A DNA stretch of 64,000 bases. It comes from Escherichia phage JLBYU50. Below the pieces are notes generated by a model. The model did no database searches. It was not told where the DNA came from and saw nothing but the letters and a program-made list of their open reading frames with translations. Position 1 is the stretch's first letter, and each line of letters starts with the position of its first letter. Below are positions 2,351-60,001 of this stretch, one piece after another. The stretch is taken from the sequence record OK272470.1, one strand, 5' to 3'. The translations under genes and the position numbers were made by a program.

Positions 2351-5226
2351 TGTCAAGAATTAAGCACAGAATTGACAATGTTTTTCAACTGATCGATGGA
2401 CATATTCAGTTCTTAGATCGTAATACAGGTTTAACTGTAGATCCTACAGTGCAACACTATGTATTAAACCCACAAAACGTTCTAGCTAATAACAGACACT
2501 TTATAAACTGGACTGCTCAAGAAGGGCAACCAAACGGGGATGCTACAACAGAAGGTCAATCCGTGCTTATTCTTGGTTGCGCTTATGCATACCTGGCTTC
2601 CGGCGATACAAAGTATTTAGACTCTGCTAAAAAATATTGGCAAGCCTATATAGATTACTTCTTTGGTGGTCAACCTATCCCAGATCCGCCAGCAAAGTAT
2701 CGCCCTAACTGGATTATTAACGGTAAAGAACCACGTCTTGCACATTATCCTCTTACAGATGATGGCTACCCTACACACGGAGGTTTTAAGGGTAGCTTAA
2801 TGACGTGGACTAACGGTAGAACAGTTATTCCTCATGGTGCTCCACATTGGGGAGAATACCTTGACAAAGCATGGTTTGCTTTTAATGGTAATCTAGGATG
2901 GAACTCTGTAAACGCTACAGTATATGCTGTTAATGCAGATGGTACAACAGATTGGTCTAAGAAGGGAGATCAATGGGATGTTGATTGGATCATTGATCGT
3001 CTAGGACGTAAAGTTGATTGGGATGGAAATATCTTAGAAGAAGGTTTTCCAACATCTCAATACGGAACAGTTCAACTAAAAAATACTTCTGTAAATGGTA
3101 CATATAAATTTAACTACGCGACTTGTAACCCTGTTGAACACGGTGGTTATTTAATGGAGCGTAACACTATGTGGCATAACAGACCAGTTAACGTTCCGGT
3201 AGAAATGGGCTTTCAGGATAATGCGTCAGATGCCGAAACTTGGTGGTGTGATGCTAATTACCTGATGTACCAAATTACAGGGGAAAGAAAATATTGGCTA
3301 TGCTGGCAGTCTTCACTGTTAGTGTGTCAAGATTATTCAAACATTGATATGTTTGATAAATTCTTCCGTAAGTCTACATATGCAACTATTCCGTTTACAG
3401 ATGGCATCTCTTACGATTATTCGTATCCATCTACAGCAATACCTAAATATTCAAGAGATACTTTAGGTTATATTGTTATTAGACAAGATGTTGCTGCTCA
3501 AACAACATTAGAACAGCAAGCCATTTGGTTTAAAGTTGATCAGAACTCTAAGTTACGAGTCCAGTTTCAAGGTGTAGATGACGCAGGACAGGGTATTCTT
3601 TTCCGTCCAGAGTTGGAATTAAGTAAGACCAAAGATGAAAATAACACAGTAACTTACCGCTGTGGCTTACCACTAGGTACAGCTAATATGACAAGCATGG
3701 ATATTCCACTATCCAGCTTTATGAGAAGTACCCCTCCTAGTGGTGGAACATATATTATCGCAGATCCGCGAATTATTGTTGACTGGGGTGACAATACTGT
3801 GGTACAATATAAGTATGTAACAGGTATTGCTGGAACTAATAATGACCAGATTGTTACTGCATCAATGGATACGGATGGTGGTATCACTGTTGGTTTTTGG
3901 TTAACTCCTACATCAAAAGCTAATGTTAAGTCTATTACATATAGAACATATGAAGATGACTTTAACATGACTATCACGGATGCTCAAGGTTGGAGATGGT
4001 GGGTTATGCTTCCTAAAACACAAGGAGCATGGAGTACGAAGACTTTATCAGCTTCTGATTTTAAGTTAAGTGCTTACCAGCCTAATCATCCAGATACAGA
4101 TCCTAAACCTTCAGCAATAAATCTTACTGCGGTAGATCAGGTAAATTTAGTTCTTGATACGGCTCCTGTAAATGGTTTAACAGGAACAATAGATTTCTAT
4201 TGTATTAACGATGTACCTGAAAGATATTCGTCATCTTCTGGTGATGATTATACCATGTACTTCCGTATTACTGTACAGGCTTCAAGTCCTCATACTGCTA
4301 AATTAGGTGATTGTACTATTATTGACTATAAATTAAATAGTCTTAATTACACACCAGGAATAATTCCATTCTCTAATATCAGTGACCCAAACACTGCATT
4401 ATACGATGGATGGCGTGGTATTCCATACCCAGGATACCAGTATCCTTCCTTATACTGTTTCGCAGGTAGGGATATTGATTGGACACGTTTAAACAACAGT
4501 ATTGATTTCTTGTATGATGCTCAAATGTGGTTTTATAACACGTTTGATCCTGTGATGCCTGGGCCTATGGCACAAGCATATGTGTGGGATCGTTGGGATG
4601 CAAGAAAATACGGTGAACCTAATACGTTTACAATGAAACACTGGAATGAAAAAGCGTGGGATGGTTATGAAGCTCGTGCATTCTACTGTGCTTGTCATGC
4701 TGTATACGAACTTGTACAAAGAGGAGAAACACCTCCTGAAAAACTAGTAACTGTTTGTAAAAATTGGATCAACTACCTTAAATGGTTCCAAGACAATAAT
4801 GATGGAAGAACACCAACTATCTTTAACCCAGATGGTACAGTTCTTGCTCCTATAGATGACTTTACTAGTCATATGTCTGCACTGTTTATGGCGGGTTGTT
4901 CAATCATGGGCTTGGCAGGTTATGATTCACAAATTCCAAACATTGGTATTGTAGCAGACAGATGTTTTGATCTGATTCAGCAAAACTATATTGTGCTTTC
5001 CCCTAACCATCCGATGAATGGTTCCTGGAGTGTTGCACCACGCCCAGATTCAGATAACGGAATGTTCTTTGGTTTCCATGCTGGAGAACTATTACGTGGT
5101 TTTGGTTTATATGCCTTGTATCGTAAACTAAACCCTCAAAACGCTTTACCAATTTTGGATAATAGTAACATACCAACACTAACTGTTCTAACTATGAATG
5201 ATATTAGTGTTGATGTAACCAAATAA
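2350..5226 (+). CDS. large virion protein, putative tail fibre/baseplate-associated carbohydrate-active protein
   Basis: 958-aa ORF, Trp/Tyr/Asp-rich, translationally coupled to neighbours. Confidence 0.55.
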   Translation: MSRIKHRIDNVFQLIDGHIQFLDRNTGLTVDPTVQHYVLNPQNVLANNRHFINWTAQEGQPNGDATTEGQSVLILGCAYAYLASGDTKYLDSAKKYWQAYIDYFFGGQPIPDPPAKYRPNWIINGKEPRLAHYPLTDDGYPTHGGFKGSLMTWTNGRTVIPHGAPHWGEYLDKAWFAFNGNLGWNSVNATVYAVNADGTTDWSKKGDQWDVDWIIDRLGRKVDWDGNILEEGFPTSQYGTVQLKNTSVNGTYKFNYATCNPVEHGGYLMERNTMWHNRPVNVPVEMGFQDNASDAETWWCDANYLMYQITGERKYWLCWQSSLLVCQDYSNIDMFDKFFRKSTYATIPFTDGISYDYSYPSTAIPKYSRDTLGYIVIRQDVAAQTTLEQQAIWFKVDQNSKLRVQFQGVDDAGQGILFRPELELSKTKDENNTVTYRCGLPLGTANMTSMDIPLSSFMRSTPPSGGTYIIADPRIIVDWGDNTVVQYKYVTGIAGTNNDQIVTASMDTDGGITVGFWLTPTSKANVKSITYRTYEDDFNMTITDAQGWRWWVMLPKTQGAWSTKTLSASDFKLSAYQPNHPDTDPKPSAINLTAVDQVNLVLDTAPVNGLTGTIDFYCINDVPERYSSSSGDDYTMYFRITVQASSPHTAKLGDCTIIDYKLNSLNYTPGIIPFSNISDPNTALYDGWRGIPYPGYQYPSLYCFAGRDIDWTRLNNSIDFLYDAQMWFYNTFDPVMPGPMAQAYVWDRWDARKYGEPNTFTMKHWNEKAWDGYEARAFYCACHAVYELVQRGETPPEKLVTVCKNWINYLKWFQDNNDGRTPTIFNPDGTVLAPIDDFTSHMSALFMAGCSIMGLAGYDSQIPNIGIVADRCFDLIQQNYIVLSPNHPMNGSWSVAPRPDSDNGMFFGFHAGELLRGFGLYALYRKLNPQNALPILDNSNIPTLTVLTMNDISVDVTK

Positions 5227-54993: not shown

Positions 54994-55122
54994 TCACCAC
55001 GATAATCTTACCCGACATACTTTTATGCACTTCACAATACCCTTTTCACCATCTTCCATTACCACCACATACTCACCTAGTGGAATATCGTATGGATCTT
55101 CTACTTTTACCCATTCTGTCAT
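54994..55122 (-). CDS. hypothetical small protein (42 aa), possibly 5' part of a frameshifted gene
   Basis: ATGA overlap with upstream small ORF; a second frame continues for 31 more codons from 55018 to 54923. Confidence 0.3.
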   Translation of the reverse strand: MTEWVKVEDPYDIPLGEYVVVMEDGEKGIVKCIKVCRVRLSW

Positions 55123-55274
55123 TTTGTAAACTCCTCATAGTAAGGTAAAGCCTTGATCAGTTGTTCTGAAGTGCCATTTTGTACCCACGTAACACCATTG
55201 TCAACAGAAACATACCCTTTTTTGTCAATAAATTTACGCAGACAGCCCGTGAACTTATTTTTGTAGATAACCAT
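55119..55274 (-). CDS. hypothetical small protein (51 aa, not in ORF track)
   Basis: RBS aaggag 5 nt before ATG at 55274; stop overlaps next start. Confidence 0.4.
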   Translation of the reverse strand: MVIYKNKFTGCLRKFIDKKGYVSVDNGVTWVQNGTSEQLIKALPYYEEFTK

Positions 55275-55286
55275 GTTTACTCCTTG

Positions 55287-55643
55287 TTACATCCACAGGT
55301 TATGAAAATACTTAGCAAACAAAATGCGACCTTCTAAACGATCTTGCCGCTGTTTTTCATTAACTTCTTCTGGTGGAGTTGAGTCCTTAAAAGAAGACTC
55401 CATTTTTTCAAGAATTTCTAACCAGTGTTCTGCTGCTCGTTCTTCCATATAAGGTAGATAGTCACCTTTAGCGTGTGGGTACATCCGACGAAGTAACCCG
55501 CTAGGAATTTTAACATTGTTTGTGGCTATCACTTTTGCACGATATGCAGAAAGTGCATTGTAGATCAGTTTACTTAGTGTCACATCTAGATCAAGAAGAT
55601 CACTCTCTTCAAATTGAATTTCATCGTGTACAATTTTCATCAT
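55287..55643 (-). CDS. hypothetical protein
   Basis: 118-aa ORF. Confidence 0.45.
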   Translation of the reverse strand: MMKIVHDEIQFEESDLLDLDVTLSKLIYNALSAYRAKVIATNNVKIPSGLLRRMYPHAKGDYLPYMEERAAEHWLEILEKMESSFKDSTPPEEVNEKQRQDRLEGRILFAKYFHNLWM

Positions 55644-55924
55644 GCTTTCTCCCGATCTGCCTCTAATTTCAATAAGAAAGCTGTATACTCTTCCGAGCCT
55701 TGGTGTAAAAACATGCGATAAGAGCTTACTAGTTTCTTCGTTGTCGTATAACGTTCCATTTCCCCAACAACACCTCCACCCAAGGTGTAGAGCACAACAC
55801 CCTCAAACCCAACATGAGTTACTACTTCAATCAAATCTGTGTTATCCCAATGGTAGTTAGGTGACACAATAAGATCGCCAACTGCCAATTTAATGTTTGC
55901 TGCTTCGTTTTGTGAATAATACAT
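55640..55924 (-). CDS. hypothetical protein
   Basis: 94-aa ORF, ATGA overlap. Confidence 0.45.
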   Translation of the reverse strand: MYYSQNEAANIKLAVGDLIVSPNYHWDNTDLIEVVTHVGFEGVVLYTLGGGVVGEMERYTTTKKLVSSYRMFLHQGSEEYTAFLLKLEADREKA

Positions 55925-55936
55925 TTGGTTCTCCTC

Positions 55937-56227
55937 TCACATTAAAACACGTTTTGCATTGCTTGGTGCATTGTCGAACATGTTTATCACTTTGTCAAGT
56001 TTGTGTATTAACTCGTTCGTAATGTTCCACTCTTTGTATGATCTCCATTGTTTCTTATTCTCACCTACCTGGTGTAAAACTTTGATGGGTGCATTCAAAC
56101 GTACATTGCGTTCTTTGTCCTCTTCAAAAGAGGCTAACCATTTTTCGTTATGTCCATGAACAGCAATAATAATGCCAAAACCATCAAAAGTTTCTGTAAT
56201 ATTCTTAGTTGCTAGTGTGATGTTCAT
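55937..56227 (-). CDS. hypothetical protein (first gene of - strand block)
   Basis: 96-aa ORF adjacent to divergent promoter region. Confidence 0.45.
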   Translation of the reverse strand: MNITLATKNITETFDGFGIIIAVHGHNEKWLASFEEDKERNVRLNAPIKVLHQVGENKKQWRSYKEWNITNELIHKLDKVINMFDNAPSNAKRVLM

Positions 56228-56286
56228 ATCTAACCTCTTTTGTTACGATACACACAGAGTACCAGAAATTAATTTCAGATCAAGTA

Positions 56287-56315
56287 TTGACATACTGTTT
56301 TATTGTGCTAATCTT
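56287..56315 (+). promoter_or_regulatory. sigma70-like promoter in divergent intergenic region
   Basis: TTGACA at 56287-56292, about 16-17 nt spacer, TAATCT -10-like element. Confidence 0.45.
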
Positions 56316-56346
56316 AATGCATACACAAATGAGAGGAGATAAACGA

Positions 56347-56898
56347 ATGCAAAACATCGATCTTACTTGGATAGAAGCCAAAGAAGCAATGTTAAAAGGC
56401 AAACGCGTTAAACATAAATACTTTTGCGAAGGAGAATGGTTTGAAATGCGTAACCGATCCATTGTAGATGAAAAAGGGAATGACATGCAACAATGGTTCA
56501 AAAATGAAATTTGGCAGGGAACAGGTTGGTCTGTAGTTGAAGAGCAGCCTAGCTCAATCGCACTGTTTAGCCCTATTATGTATCGCGTTATCGGTGCTTT
56601 AGTTGTTGATCACGGGATTGCAGTGGAAAAAGAATACTGGGAAGAGGTATCTTTTTTCAACCTGGCTTCTTATGCAAAAAGCCATATGCACTTGTTTGAA
56701 GAAGGGGATGAATTTGTTCTTCGTATGCGATATGGCAAAGAATTCAGATTACCACTTGATAACGATGTAGACACTGTTGTAAAATGGTTAGCAGAGCATT
56801 ATGCTTACGATGCAATTTGTGGTCGCAGCTTCGGCAACGAACGCTGGGACATGATTTGTGAAAAATATGATTTTGAGCCGGAATACGGAGTTTTATAA
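56347..56898 (+). CDS. protein with DUF2829-like N-terminal domain (Tad2-like candidate)
   Basis: Start reassigned to ATG at 56347 (RBS gagaggag); N-terminus LTWIEAKEAMLKGKRVKHKYF resembles DUF2829 opening FGEALEALKxGKKVxRxGW. Confidence 0.4.
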   Translation: MQNIDLTWIEAKEAMLKGKRVKHKYFCEGEWFEMRNRSIVDEKGNDMQQWFKNEIWQGTGWSVVEEQPSSIALFSPIMYRVIGALVVDHGIAVEKEYWEEVSFFNLASYAKSHMHLFEEGDEFVLRMRYGKEFRLPLDNDVDTVVKWLAEHYAYDAICGRSFGNERWDMICEKYDFEPEYGVL

Positions 56899-57149
56899 TG
56901 TTAAGTATCAAACCTAAAATGATAACAGCAGATGAAGCAGACTTTATTTTCAAATGTGGACATGTATGGAGAGAATTCACAAAAGGGAATGAAGTGGTGG
57001 TTGTTGTCGAACACAAGATATCTATCCAGGATCTGTTTGGACAATATGTTGATGTTATTAAATTAGGTATTGACAAGGGTTTAGTTGAGGTGTTAACATT
57101 AGATCAAGTTGAAGCAGAGCACCTCGATAAAGTAGTGGTTGAATTTTAA
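56898..57149 (+). CDS. hypothetical protein
   Basis: 83-aa ORF, TAATG overlap with upstream gene. Confidence 0.45.
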   Translation: MLSIKPKMITADEADFIFKCGHVWREFTKGNEVVVVVEHKISIQDLFGQYVDVIKLGIDKGLVEVLTLDQVEAEHLDKVVVEF

Positions 57150-57169
57150 AATACAGACGGGAGAAAGGT

Positions 57170-57343
57170 ATGAGTTTCTTTGTTACAGTATTTATGGCTA
57201 TCTGGATTGTAGTCTCACTCGTTCTTTTCCTGGTGGGTTGTCTGGAAGAGATTAAGAAAGCGGTTATTTGCGGTTTCTTTGGCTTTATTATCTCTCCTGC
57301 CTGGATGTGGTTCTTCATTATGATTGGTTTCCTTAAAAGGTAA
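57170..57343 (+). CDS. small hydrophobic membrane protein (57 aa, not in ORF track)
   Basis: RBS gggagaaagg before ATG at 57170; two predicted TM helices. Confidence 0.4.
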   Translation: MSFFVTVFMAIWIVVSLVLFLVGCLEEIKKAVICGFFGFIISPAWMWFFIMIGFLKR

Positions 57344-57357
57344 GTGAGGAATAAAGA

Positions 57358-57795
57358 ATGAGTAAAACAAACGCAATCGCAGATAAAGCAACTGATGTAC
57401 TTCTGAACATGGTTAACGTCACTATTCAAACAATGAGTGATGTTGTGGAGTTTGGAAAACAACAAATTCCAGAAGTAATCCATCAATTATTAGTGTGGAA
57501 AGCAGTATCCGCAGGTTTATGGCAACTTTTTGGTATTTGCTTTATGTTTATTACTTTTATTGCTGTGCGGAACCTCGTAAAAGCAATTAAAGATAAAGAA
57601 TGCCTGTGGTCACGAGATCGCTATGGTGAAGTATCTGCTTTACCTATTGTTGGTCTTGTTGTCTGTGCTTTCTTTTTCTTTTTAGGATTTGTTATTTTCT
57701 TTTCGAATTTTGATTGGCTAAAAATCATTATTGCACCAAAAGTGTATCTGATTGAATTTGCTGCTGATTTAATTCGTTCATCTCAACAAAAATAA
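57358..57795 (+). CDS. membrane protein
   Basis: 145 aa with two long hydrophobic helices. Confidence 0.5.
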   Translation: MSKTNAIADKATDVLLNMVNVTIQTMSDVVEFGKQQIPEVIHQLLVWKAVSAGLWQLFGICFMFITFIAVRNLVKAIKDKECLWSRDRYGEVSALPIVGLVVCAFFFFLGFVIFFSNFDWLKIIIAPKVYLIEFAADLIRSSQQK

Positions 57796-57806
57796 AAGGG
57801 GTTAAA

Positions 57807-58934
57807 ATGAAATACACGATTTATGGTGATATTGTAAGTGTAAATAAAGATATGGGCGTGGAATCTAACTATCTTCCACCTGGATTCTATACTGTTAGTC
57901 GTGATCCCCTTGGCAATTATTTTTTAAGCCGTGGTAATCTGACAGGTGTACCGGATGTTTTGTATGGTGAAACAGAAAAACGAGCAAATCACGTTATCCG
58001 TACATTCCATCGCCGGAGTGCACAAGGTAAAAACACAGGCTTGCTTCTGACAGGAACTAAGGGCAGTGGTAAAACTATGTTAGCCAAACTCATTAGTCGT
58101 GACCTTGTAGAAGAAGGTATTCCAACTATTATGGTTACTCAAGCCTACAGTGATGCTAATTTCATTGAACTTATTAGCAAGATCACCGACAAAGCAGTGA
58201 TTATTTTTGACGAGTTTGATAAAGTGTATGAGAAGAAACAAGATCAAGAAGCACTTCTCACTTTGTTAGATGGTACTGGCAGTGGTAATAAACTGTTTAT
58301 TCTGACTAAAAACAGTGGTTTTATTTCTGAATTCTTTTTAAATCGTCCTAGTCGTGTGTTTTATAATTTTAATTATGATAAAATCTCACTAGAAACTATG
58401 ATTGACTATTTAGATAAAAACCTAGATAACAAAGCACACTTTGATAATTTCCAAAGACTTTGGGATGTAAGTTTAGAGTTGTCCTTTGATGTGATCCAAG
58501 GTATAGTAGAAGAACTTAATTTCTACCCTGATTTATCCTTTAAAGAATGCATCTCTATGATGGGCGTTTCTTTAGGTGGTGGTAATAAATGGGATATCAG
58601 CAGTGTTGTTATTAATGGGAAACTTCAGAAAGTTAGCTGGGTATCTAGTTGGCATAACTTTACACCTGCAATCTTTTTAGGTGGCTCGTGCACACTAGAC
58701 GTGTACTTGTCATCTCCAAGTGATGCAGACTCTAAAGAAGCCCTTGCTAATAGCTCTTACGTGGTTTTTGATGATGAAGGAGATGCTCGAATTCCATTGA
58801 ATGCGACAAAAATGAAAGCAGATCTTATTACAGGCGGTAAAATCGTTGTGTTTAGTGATGATCCAGAAGATTCTTTCCGTATTGTTCTGGAGCCAACTAT
58901 CACCAATGGTGCAACTTTGGCAAGTGTGTTTTAA
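57807..58934 (+). CDS. AAA+ ATPase (paralog B)
   Basis: Walker A GTKGSGKT; Walker B IIFDEFDK; sensor-1 FILTKN; Arg-finger NRPSRVFY; collinear with paralog A across about 300 aa. Confidence 0.65.
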   Translation: MKYTIYGDIVSVNKDMGVESNYLPPGFYTVSRDPLGNYFLSRGNLTGVPDVLYGETEKRANHVIRTFHRRSAQGKNTGLLLTGTKGSGKTMLAKLISRDLVEEGIPTIMVTQAYSDANFIELISKITDKAVIIFDEFDKVYEKKQDQEALLTLLDGTGSGNKLFILTKNSGFISEFFLNRPSRVFYNFNYDKISLETMIDYLDKNLDNKAHFDNFQRLWDVSLELSFDVIQGIVEELNFYPDLSFKECISMMGVSLGGGNKWDISSVVINGKLQKVSWVSSWHNFTPAIFLGGSCTLDVYLSSPSDADSKEALANSSYVVFDDEGDARIPLNATKMKADLITGGKIVVFSDDPEDSFRIVLEPTITNGATLASVF

Positions 58935-58949
58935 GTAAGCCAGCAAATA

Positions 58950-58975
58950 AAAACCCGCTTCGGCGGGTTTTCTTG
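58950..58975 (+). terminator. rho-independent terminator
   Basis: acccgc-ttcg-gcgggt hairpin followed by TTTTCTTG. Confidence 0.75.
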
Positions 58976-59008
58976 TATTAATACCAGATTTAATAAAAGG
59001 AGTAGTAG

Positions 59009-60001
59009 ATGGGAACACCAAAATCATGGGAACAATATAAAGAAGAATTAACACCTCTTGCTAAAAATCGCAATATTCAAATCCTGGGTTATGTTGGTGA
59101 ATGGAAAGGGAATAAAACAAAACTTGATTTGTTGTGTCATTGTGGGTATAGATGGCAAAGTACAGCTATTACGGACTTTAAACGTGGTGGTGGTTGCCCC
59201 AGTTGTAATTTAGATAGCTTACGCAAACGTATAATCATCCCTGACGATCAACACATACAAGATTTCATGAATACTGGCGCTTTCCAACCAGGAACCATCT
59301 TCATCAATACAGGGGAACGTACTGGAAATAGTGACAGTATTTGGTGTATAAAATGTCCTATTTGCTCATACGACGAATATGTACAAGCTGGAGTATGTGA
59401 TGGTAAGTTTTATTCTACAAAGAGTAGTCTTAAAAACGGGAGTCTCGCTTGTCGTTGTTCTACACGTTATGTGTTTAGCGATCAGCAGTTAACATACCGC
59501 ATGAGAAAGGAGTTGCAGAAAAAAGATTTGATTTTTATTGAATGGGTAGGCAAACCTTCTGTAAGATTAGGTAAGTTTAAATATCTTTGTCTTGTACATG
59601 GGGAGCAGATAGGGAGTGCTAGTAACTTATTAAGCCACGGTCGAGGTTGTCCTATGTGTGCTGGTCATAGTCAGCAGCAGTTATATATTAATATTGTTAA
59701 GGATGATAATATTATAGTTGCTCTTAAGTTTGGTATAGCTAAAGATAGTGATAGGCGATTAAACATTCAAAATAGCCGTAATCTGTTTTTTATGGAACGT
59801 ATTTGTTTATATGATTTTAGCACAGTGAAACAGTGTAAGGCTGCTGAAAGAGCTATAAAGAAAAAATTAAAAACTGGTATTTTAACAGCAAGAGAGTTGA
59901 AAGACGGTCATACAGAAACAGTAAGTGTTTCTGATTTGGAAAATCTTCAAAAAATTATTACACAATATGGTGGCAAATTAGTATATAGTAAGGAGGTGTA
60001 A
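59009..60001 (+). CDS. zinc-ribbon repeat protein with C-terminal T5orf172 (GIY-YIG-like) domain
   Basis: Three Cys modules (CHCGYRWQ...GCPSCN; CPICSYDEY...CRCSTRY; CLVHGEQ...GCPMCAG); C-terminal VALKFGIAKDSDRRLNIQNSRNLFF resembles T5orf172. Confidence 0.5.
   Translation: MGTPKSWEQYKEELTPLAKNRNIQILGYVGEWKGNKTKLDLLCHCGYRWQSTAITDFKRGGGCPSCNLDSLRKRIIIPDDQHIQDFMNTGAFQPGTIFINTGERTGNSDSIWCIKCPICSYDEYVQAGVCDGKFYSTKSSLKNGSLACRCSTRYVFSDQQLTYRMRKELQKKDLIFIEWVGKPSVRLGKFKYLCLVHGEQIGSASNLLSHGRGCPMCAGHSQQQLYINIVKDDNIIVALKFGIAKDSDRRLNIQNSRNLFFMERICLYDFSTVKQCKAAERAIKKKLKTGILTARELKDGHTETVSVSDLENLQKIITQYGGKLVYSKEV

Follow-up and report, generated by a model that had tools for sequence, protein, structure and literature searches.

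A two-module protein of phi92-like phages that joins a miniaturized Tad2-like domain to a second uncharacterized phage domain

At the head of the rightward operon behind a divergent promoter region, Escherichia phage JLBYU50 encodes a 183-aa protein composed of two phage domains, and what is new here is a miniaturized Tad2-like variant joined to a second uncharacterized phage domain by a lineage-specific inversion. Residues 1 to 65 (the N-module) are, as judged from profile comparisons, a stripped-down remote homolog of Tad2/DUF2829 belonging to the same superfamily, whereas residues 73 to 183 (the C-module) belong to a different phage family, which in more distant relatives is encoded by a separate gene. 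Taken together, the anatomy of the protein, the homology of its N-terminal part, and the origin of the fusion are claims that we hold with high confidence. The positions of the features are collected in Table 1, where "the window" is the whole 64,000-nucleotide stretch of JLBYU50 DNA that was analyzed.

Table 1. Features of the fusion gene and its surroundings; positions are those of the window unless another genome or locus is named.
Feature	Position	Strand	Details
CDS, two-module fusion protein	56347..56898	+	183 aa, 21.8 kDa, pI 4.9; start ATG 56347, stop 56896-56898; Phi92_gp217 ortholog
Ribosome-binding site	56334..56338	+	AGGAG, 8 nt 5' of the ATG; annotated RBS in phi92
N-module, aa 1-65	56347..56541	+	miniaturized Tad2/DUF2829-like domain
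Linker, aa 66-72	56542..56562	+	EEQPSSI-A; low confidence, most variable stretch
C-module, aa 73-183	56563..56895	+	phrog_11295 family; alpha-beta5-alpha-alpha, secretion-chaperone/YbjN-like fold
Rightward promoter, predicted early	56287..56314	+	-35 TTGACA 56287-56292, 16-nt spacer, extended -10 TGc-TAATCT 56306-56314
Putative leftward promoter, divergent from the above	56256..56283	-	-35 TTGATC 56283->56278, 16 nt, -10 TACTCT 56261->56256
Rest of the rightward operon	56898..58971	+	gp218-like 56898-57149; membrane proteins 57170-57343 and 57358-57795; AAA ATPase 57807-58934
Bidirectional terminator	58950-58971		ends the rightward operon
Leftward operon genes, tudor and DUF7325	55640-55924 and 55937-56227	-	
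Inverted block	55287..56541		118-aa gene, tudor gene, DUF7325 gene, promoter region, N-module; blastn versus nepoznato and PHB05
N-module of PHB05 (L095)	4501-4680	+	gp207
C-module of PHB05 (L095)	3290-3628	-	gp210
N-modules with basic tail	L003 1052-1495, L087 573-1061, L088 2288-2704	-	proteins P0003, P0009, P0011, P0038

Two phage families in one polypeptide

The open reading frame was confirmed as a real gene. Its source is a phi92-like myophage (Justusliebigvirus, Stephanstirmvirinae), positions 55000 to 59000 of the window being 98% identical to phages Eryne, alia, Paula, and phi92. The orthologs Phi92_gp217 and Paula_0101 carry "conserved hypothetical protein" as their sole annotation, and the neighboring genes of the operon are all annotated without an assigned function. 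A tblastn search of 50,697 phage records recovered the full-length protein in 31 of them, all phi92-like. With the full protein as the query, a word-indexed homolog search recovered the phi92 ortholog alone; with the N-module, the same search gave no matches, and a chimeric-alignment query returned only C-module homologs because the shared C-terminal part dominated the candidate list. Elsewhere in the window, we found no second N-module, second C-module, or canonical Tad2.

A preliminary description of this gene had raised the possibility of a fusion, and the guess proved sound: the split of the PHROG matches, the tblastn results, and the existence of separate genes in relatives all point to an N-terminal part joined to an unrelated C-terminal module. 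The PHROG matches break at residues 69/73. Residues 1 to 69 match phrog_22208 (E = 8e-28) and phrog_3474 (a 64-aa family; E = 5.5e-26), and residues 73 to 182 match phrog_11295 (a 110-aa family; E = 7.6e-50), none of the three entries being assigned a functional category. The JLBYU50 protein is a clear member of all three families; however, these are normally separate proteins and form one polypeptide only in phi92-like Justusliebigvirus genomes. AF2 seeded with a 34-sequence alignment gave a model with a mean pLDDT of 87.6 that fell below 50 at linker residues 67 to 70 (from the single sequence, the pLDDT was 49 and the model unusable). The secondary structure of the N-module comprises alpha1 (8-16), beta strands at 21-23, 32-35, and 38-41, a short helix (55-58), and a final strand (61-63). 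When the two-module protein was aligned by MAFFT with many single-module sequences, divergent C-modules were misplaced, and a cleaner subset alignment was chosen.

In the tblastn results, the two parts also occur apart from each other, with different distributions. The C-terminal part alone was recovered at 60 to 67% identity in Phapecoctavirus and related phages. The N-terminal part alone was recovered at ~35 to 60% identity in several hundred phages, the hosts of which include Klebsiella, Escherichia, Salmonella, Citrobacter, and Erwinia; judged by size and taxonomy, T4-like, T5-like, and Felix O1-like genomes are among them. Virulent phages of Enterobacteriaceae commonly carry the ~60-aa N-module family, which is present in 429 phage records from E. 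coli, Klebsiella, Salmonella, Citrobacter, and Erwinia. A phmmer search with residues 1 to 72 against 1.8 billion representatives yielded 46 matches, mostly stand-alone proteins of 59 to 70 aa. Its top matches (P0002, 5,991 aa with 15 matching stretches, and P0008) were discarded as repeat or low-complexity artifacts, P0002 being missed by the family HMM. Across the family, the module occurs alone, with a basic tail, with the C-module, or with other extensions.

Several variants deserve separate mention. In most Stephanstirmvirinae relatives, the N-module and a variable linker are followed by a strongly conserved basic tail with a net charge of +10 over the last 27 aa, and in the phi92-like phages the chaperone-like module stands in its place. 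A metagenomic protein of 175 aa (P0020) carries tandem N-modules at residues 1 to 73 and 79 to 152, which hints that the module may be used as a dimer or higher oligomer. In Klebsiella phage TU02 (L094), the N-module homolog at 2413 to 2680 is split, or given a wrong start, in the deposited annotation; the frame open from 2501 encodes a full-length N-module (HMM E = 2e-31).

An inversion around a divergent promoter

The preliminary description placed the gene directly behind a divergent promoter, and we found that the gene does come first behind a promoter that is conserved in relatives. The divergent intergenic region spans 119 nt. A consensus promoter scan did not report the rightward promoter, because its -10 element matches at 3/6 positions. 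A TTGAC[AT]-16-TAAGAT promoter lies 5' of the N-module gene in Phapecoctavirus nepoznato and in L088, at the head of the N-module operon in L087, and at the equivalent spot in Citrobacter phage Tr1, where the N-module was not found in the stretch examined. On the other side, the equivalent place is occupied by TTGATC-16-TATCAT in nepoznato and TTGACT-16-TACAAT in L088; the leftward promoter of JLBYU50 would, by its position, drive the DUF7325, tudor, and 118-aa genes. In a T5-like phage, the N-module protein ende_2 (HMM E = 1.3e-22) is encoded in the terminal genome region, which we take as pre-early; in a T4-like Jiaodavirus, the module is found among small genes between nrdG and gene 55. From the conservation of the promoter and these positions in T5-like and T4-like phages, we infer with good support that the fusion gene is the first early gene.

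Comparison with relatives suggests how the two modules came to be joined. The C-module has a gene of its own in nepoznato, Tr1, and two metagenomic relatives, several genes into the DUF7325-led operon, and in nepoznato and two metagenomic relatives the N-module gene is first or second in the opposite operon of the shared intergenic region. The stand-alone N-module proteins at that divergent locus are 138 to 162 aa long and end in the basic tail KG[KR]GHNKLxK[GR]KKK. As the order with separate genes is that of the more distant relatives, we take two genes in operons diverging from one promoter block as the ancestral arrangement. Positions 55600 to 56541 of the window match nepoznato in the inverted orientation (blastn, 77.7% over 958 nt), with both flanks collinear. 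Phage PHB05, itself classified in Justusliebigvirus, retains the un-inverted order with the stand-alone C-module gp210; its flanks are 93 to 98% identical to the window, and the block at ~55292 to 56448 is inverted relative to both of them (blastn). The breakpoints fall at about 55268 to 55292 and within 56449 to 56650, which delimits a block of ~1.2 kb. That the central block runs opposite to two collinear flanks indicates that an inversion placed the N-module before the C-module. When the ~1.2-kb promoter block was turned around in the phi92 lineage, the N-module gene came to lie head-to-tail before the C-module gene; the N-module lost its own C-terminal tail, and the ATG with which the C-module once began became CTG (L73), giving rise to a single open reading frame. 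The locus is also a clean, datable case of one inversion around a divergent promoter creating a new multidomain phage protein. The only inverted repeat at the breakpoints is a weak and unconvincing 21-nt pair (55211-55231/56462-56482, 76% complementary), which is probably due to chance. In PHB05, gp207 (59 aa) is decayed, with the beta-hairpin and W50 deleted internally, G18 replaced by D, and W8 replaced by S.

The N-module and the Tad2/DUF2829 superfamily

The likeness of the N terminus to DUF2829 proteins had been proposed from a short peptide, which is present at residues 6 to 26, and profile comparison together with a search of BFVD extended it to a domain of ~65 aa with the Tad2/DUF2829 fold and remote homology to that family. 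Single-sequence searches of Pfam, the PDB (phmmer), and NCBIfam gave nothing useful, and the DUF2829 HMM search that had been proposed as a check came out negative, PF11195 ("Tad2-like"; gathering threshold, 25 bits) giving no match to the JLBYU50 protein even at E <= 10. Matches to PF11195 were recovered for 12 of 43 N-module family members, all of them below the threshold (the best being P0004, with 18.6 bits and E = 0.0028), which leaves the family outside PF11195 as delimited by its gathering threshold. The proposed structural comparison was borne out in one database and not in another: BFVD returned DUF2829/Tad2-like proteins, and Foldseek against the PDB returned nothing significant. When the N-module family profile was searched against PDB sequences, SptTad2 (8WJD) was the best match (E = 0.049).

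For profile-profile comparison, a canonical Tad2 profile was built from gp34.65 of phage Goe10, a Tad2 of the SPO1 type, with the C-terminal part of gp49 from N4 and 80 IMG/VR relatives. HHalign aligned it end to end with the N-module (JLBYU50 residues 2 to 66 with Tad2 residues 1 to 90) at a probability of 92.3% (E = 5.6e-7; score, 36.2), and the controls, namely, 20 column-shuffled profiles, one reversed profile, and the C-module profile, scored at most 13.8 with probabilities of at most 0.8%. A second HHalign comparison with separately built alignments gave 92.1% (E = 6.4e-7). The family phrog_2709 links both sides, matching canonical Tad2 at E = 1.7e-10 and the JLBYU50 protein at E = 4.8e-4. 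Profile homology to the Tad2/DUF2829 superfamily is therefore statistically supported. The core fold is common to the N-module and the Tad2 proteins (SPO1 Tad2; HgmTad2, which is AcrIIA7, PDB 8KBI; ModTad2, PDB 9EIB; SptTad2, 8WJD): both begin with a helix and go on to a small antiparallel sheet whose last strand carries W-x-I/V, and both are acidic, small phage proteins encoded among early genes. However, the N-module has only ~65 aa, compared to 86 to 104 aa in Tad2, and, unlike Tad2, that of JLBYU50 is fused to a second domain.

We then compared the residues that Tad2 uses for ligand binding. In SPO1 Tad2, these are W25, N26, W73, and D79, with I63, T65, D67, H71, S76, and T78 (bioRxiv 10.1101/2023.05.01.538930). 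HgmTad2 no longer binds when mutated as W21A/N22A or as S90A/T92A/D93A, and the gcADPR site is reported to be conserved in ~99% of Tad2 homologs (bioRxiv 10.1101/2023.11.15.567273), a set outside of which the N-module family therefore falls. Mapping through the HHalign alignment onto the 43 family members showed that the A and G of the helix are kept (A11 and G18), that the W25 position is aromatic (F26; 42/43), that the W73 position is W50 (W or F in 41/43), and that the W85 position is W61 (41/43). In contrast, R22 is replaced by H, G24 by Y/H, N26 by T/C/S (C27 in JLBYU50), S76 by G/N, T78 by E, and D84 by G; G27 is deleted, and the D79 position is variable (I55 in JLBYU50). Thus, of the residues that define the gcADPR site (W25, N26, W73, S76, T78, and D79; SPO1 numbering), only the aromatic positions persist, and the GWNG and SQTD motifs of Tad2 have as their counterparts [HN]x[YH]F[TCS] and [GN]-E-x. 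The Tad2 sample in the residue table was retrieved by a GWNGK pattern, so the invariance of GWNGK in it is circular, and the statement that the motif is conserved rests on the literature. Peculiar to the N-module family are the near-invariant residues H23, E30, E42, G44, and G60.

A further difference is in the insertion between beta2 and beta3, which in Tad2 includes alpha2 and forms the V-shaped dimer interface and, in the long forms, the cyclic-dinucleotide pocket. This is missing from the N-module: in the HHalign alignment, ~21 Tad2 residues between beta2 and beta3/4 are unmatched, and their place is taken by a tight hairpin at residues 32 to 41. Hence, a Tad2-like tetramer with pockets between protomers may not form. 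By these comparisons, the N-module belongs to the Tad2 superfamily yet lacks the defining functional features of Tad2. The earlier suggestion that the protein might sequester Thoeris signaling nucleotides as Tad2 does is not backed by the alignment, in which N26, G27, S76, T78, and D79 are not conserved and the dimer insertion is absent; as the residues with which Tad2 traps the Thoeris signal are not kept, the target is probably a different one.

Possible roles and the neighboring genes

The C-module adopts an alpha-beta-alpha sandwich that can be superposed on class I type III secretion chaperones (AvrPphF ORF1/ShcF, ExsC, Spa15, SycT, SigE, and CesT-like proteins), and its fold also resembles that of the YbjN family (DR_1245 and AmyR). 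There is, however, no sequence similarity to either (5 to 21% identity) and no Pfam match. Searches of Pfam, NCBIfam, and PDB sequences with 14 members of the family gave no matches, and the C-module is thus not a member of the chaperone or YbjN families by sequence; in view of this lack of a family-level match, we claim a resemblance of fold only. The conserved motifs are AKSHxH, RY, GRSFGxxxW, and C171, of which the first three, which are polar, are sharply conserved and missing from the secretion chaperones. The genomic context also differs from that of type III chaperones in having neither a secretion system nor an effector. A candidate zinc site (H113/H115/C158/C171) is doubtful, as the cysteines are not invariant and there is only a weak zf-C2HC_2 match (E = 0.045).

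We propose that the protein would be synthesized as infection begins, driven by a promoter of the host sigma70 type, and act in host takeover or anti-defense. The Tad2-like module would oligomerize as Tad2 does and bind a small, probably nucleotide-derived ligand in a pocket formed by F26, W50, and W61 with the family-specific H23, E30, and E42; as other residues take the place of the polar gcADPR contacts of Tad2, canonical binding of gcADPR is improbable. A precedent for a retargeted Tad2 clade is ModTad2, which binds His-ADPR and not gcADPR (bioRxiv 10.1101/2024.01.03.573942). The chaperone-like module would most likely dimerize and/or bind a protein partner, keeping its stand-alone function. 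On the available sequence evidence, we lean slightly toward an early anti-defense or host-takeover protein; that it is a small-molecule sponge in particular is the likeliest of the specific mechanisms, though less likely than not. An unlikely but more specific form of it would be a miniaturized Tad2-type sponge with the pocket H23/F26/E30/E42/W50/W61 retuned to an immune or host signal other than gcADPR, His-ADPR, and the known cyclic dinucleotides, in which the chaperone-like domain of the phi92-like phages, presumed dimeric, would restore the oligomerization lost with the alpha2 insertion. If that were true, the protein could serve as bait for a new signal, as ModTad2 did for His-ADPR.

Other readings have to be weighed against this proposal. 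That the DUF2829 likeness is a chance similarity of a short amphipathic helix in an otherwise ordinary orphan would fit the negative single-sequence searches of Pfam and the PDB and the negative Foldseek search, but it was already tested in our profile analysis, found no support there, and is highly improbable. The opposite view, of a bona fide Tad2 whose N-domain tetramer sequesters 1''-3'/1''-2' gcADPR or His-ADPR and thereby blocks type I/II Thoeris, could draw on the fold, the remote homology to Tad2 proteins whose structures contain these ligands, the aromatic positions W25, W73, and W85 kept as F26, W50, and W61, and the early position of the gene. It is nevertheless quite improbable given the lack of a PF11195 match for the JLBYU50 protein and the subthreshold matches of its relatives, the change or loss of N26, G27, S76, T78, and D79, the loss of binding in the HgmTad2 mutants (bioRxiv 10.1101/2023.11.15.567273), and the absent dimer-forming insertion. 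Somewhat unlikely, though the main rival of the sponge, is a third account, that the N-module is a macromolecule-binding adaptor, for a host protein or a structured RNA, with interchangeable C-terminal parts. Its occurrence with different C-terminal parts (none, the basic tail, the C-module, or other extensions) and a C-module fold typical of protein-binding dimers are in keeping with this, as is the report that the DUF2829 protein AcrIIA7 uses a basic groove on its tetramer to bind tracrRNA (PMC13133391). Yet another group did not reproduce the anti-CRISPR activity of AcrIIA7/HgmTad2 (bioRxiv 10.1101/2023.11.15.567273). The N-module family, with a median pI of 5.3 and a median net charge of -3, is acidic and ill-suited to binding RNA by the domain itself, and its invariant buried aromatic and acidic residues would fit a pocket for a ligand better than a surface for protein contacts.

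A different question is whether the fusion has a function of its own, or whether the inversion merely joined two unrelated early genes of which the Tad2-like half may be decaying. This we regard as possible rather than probable, and it concerns the added value of the fusion alone, being compatible with the main explanation of an early anti-defense or host-takeover protein. It is favored by the modules being separate, nonadjacent genes in relatives outside the phi92 lineage, by the decayed N-module of PHB05, and by the short, low-confidence, and variable linker, where the substitutions among Justusliebigvirus sequences cluster. On the other hand, the 183-codon frame is intact in 6/6 Justusliebigvirus sequences compared and full length in the 31 records, both modules have kept the residues that are invariant in their families, and dN/dS lies at 0.05 to 0.34 per module in 4/5 pairs (the near-identical phi92 pair being uninformative), although the ratios are weak evidence for maintenance because few substitutions were counted.

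Tad2-family sponges are a major phage counter-defense and a practical tool. If the analysis holds, the Tad2 superfamily gains a large family of tiny early proteins that lacks annotation and has different pocket residues, as a candidate sponge of new specificity or a new use of the fold, and the phages of E. coli, Klebsiella, and Salmonella that carry it are relevant to therapy. Should the protein be no more than a structural relative that does something unrelated, the result is an ordinary improvement of annotation.

Some observations concern the neighboring genes. The AAA ATPase of the rightward operon (375 aa; PF00004) has a C-terminal part of ~200 aa without a family match and is annotated in relatives as "ATPase or Zn metalloprotease/FtsH-like"; it is syntenic with the C-module in nepoznato, PHB05, Tr1, and L087 and not in L088. 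The leftward operon begins with the DUF7325 protein (PF24011; E = 4.9e-20), which is followed by a "Phage_tudor" protein (PF24144; E = 1.4e-25), and PHB05 has no gene at the tudor position. ARAGORN detected no tRNA genes in the whole 64-kb window. Directly past the terminator, at 59009 to 60001 on the plus strand, lies a gene for a 330-aa protein (phrog_681, "endonuclease") that combines three CapR-homology repeats with a T5orf172 domain and looks like a homing-endonuclease-type insertion; phi92 and Paula carry a longer version of this protein (~390 aa).
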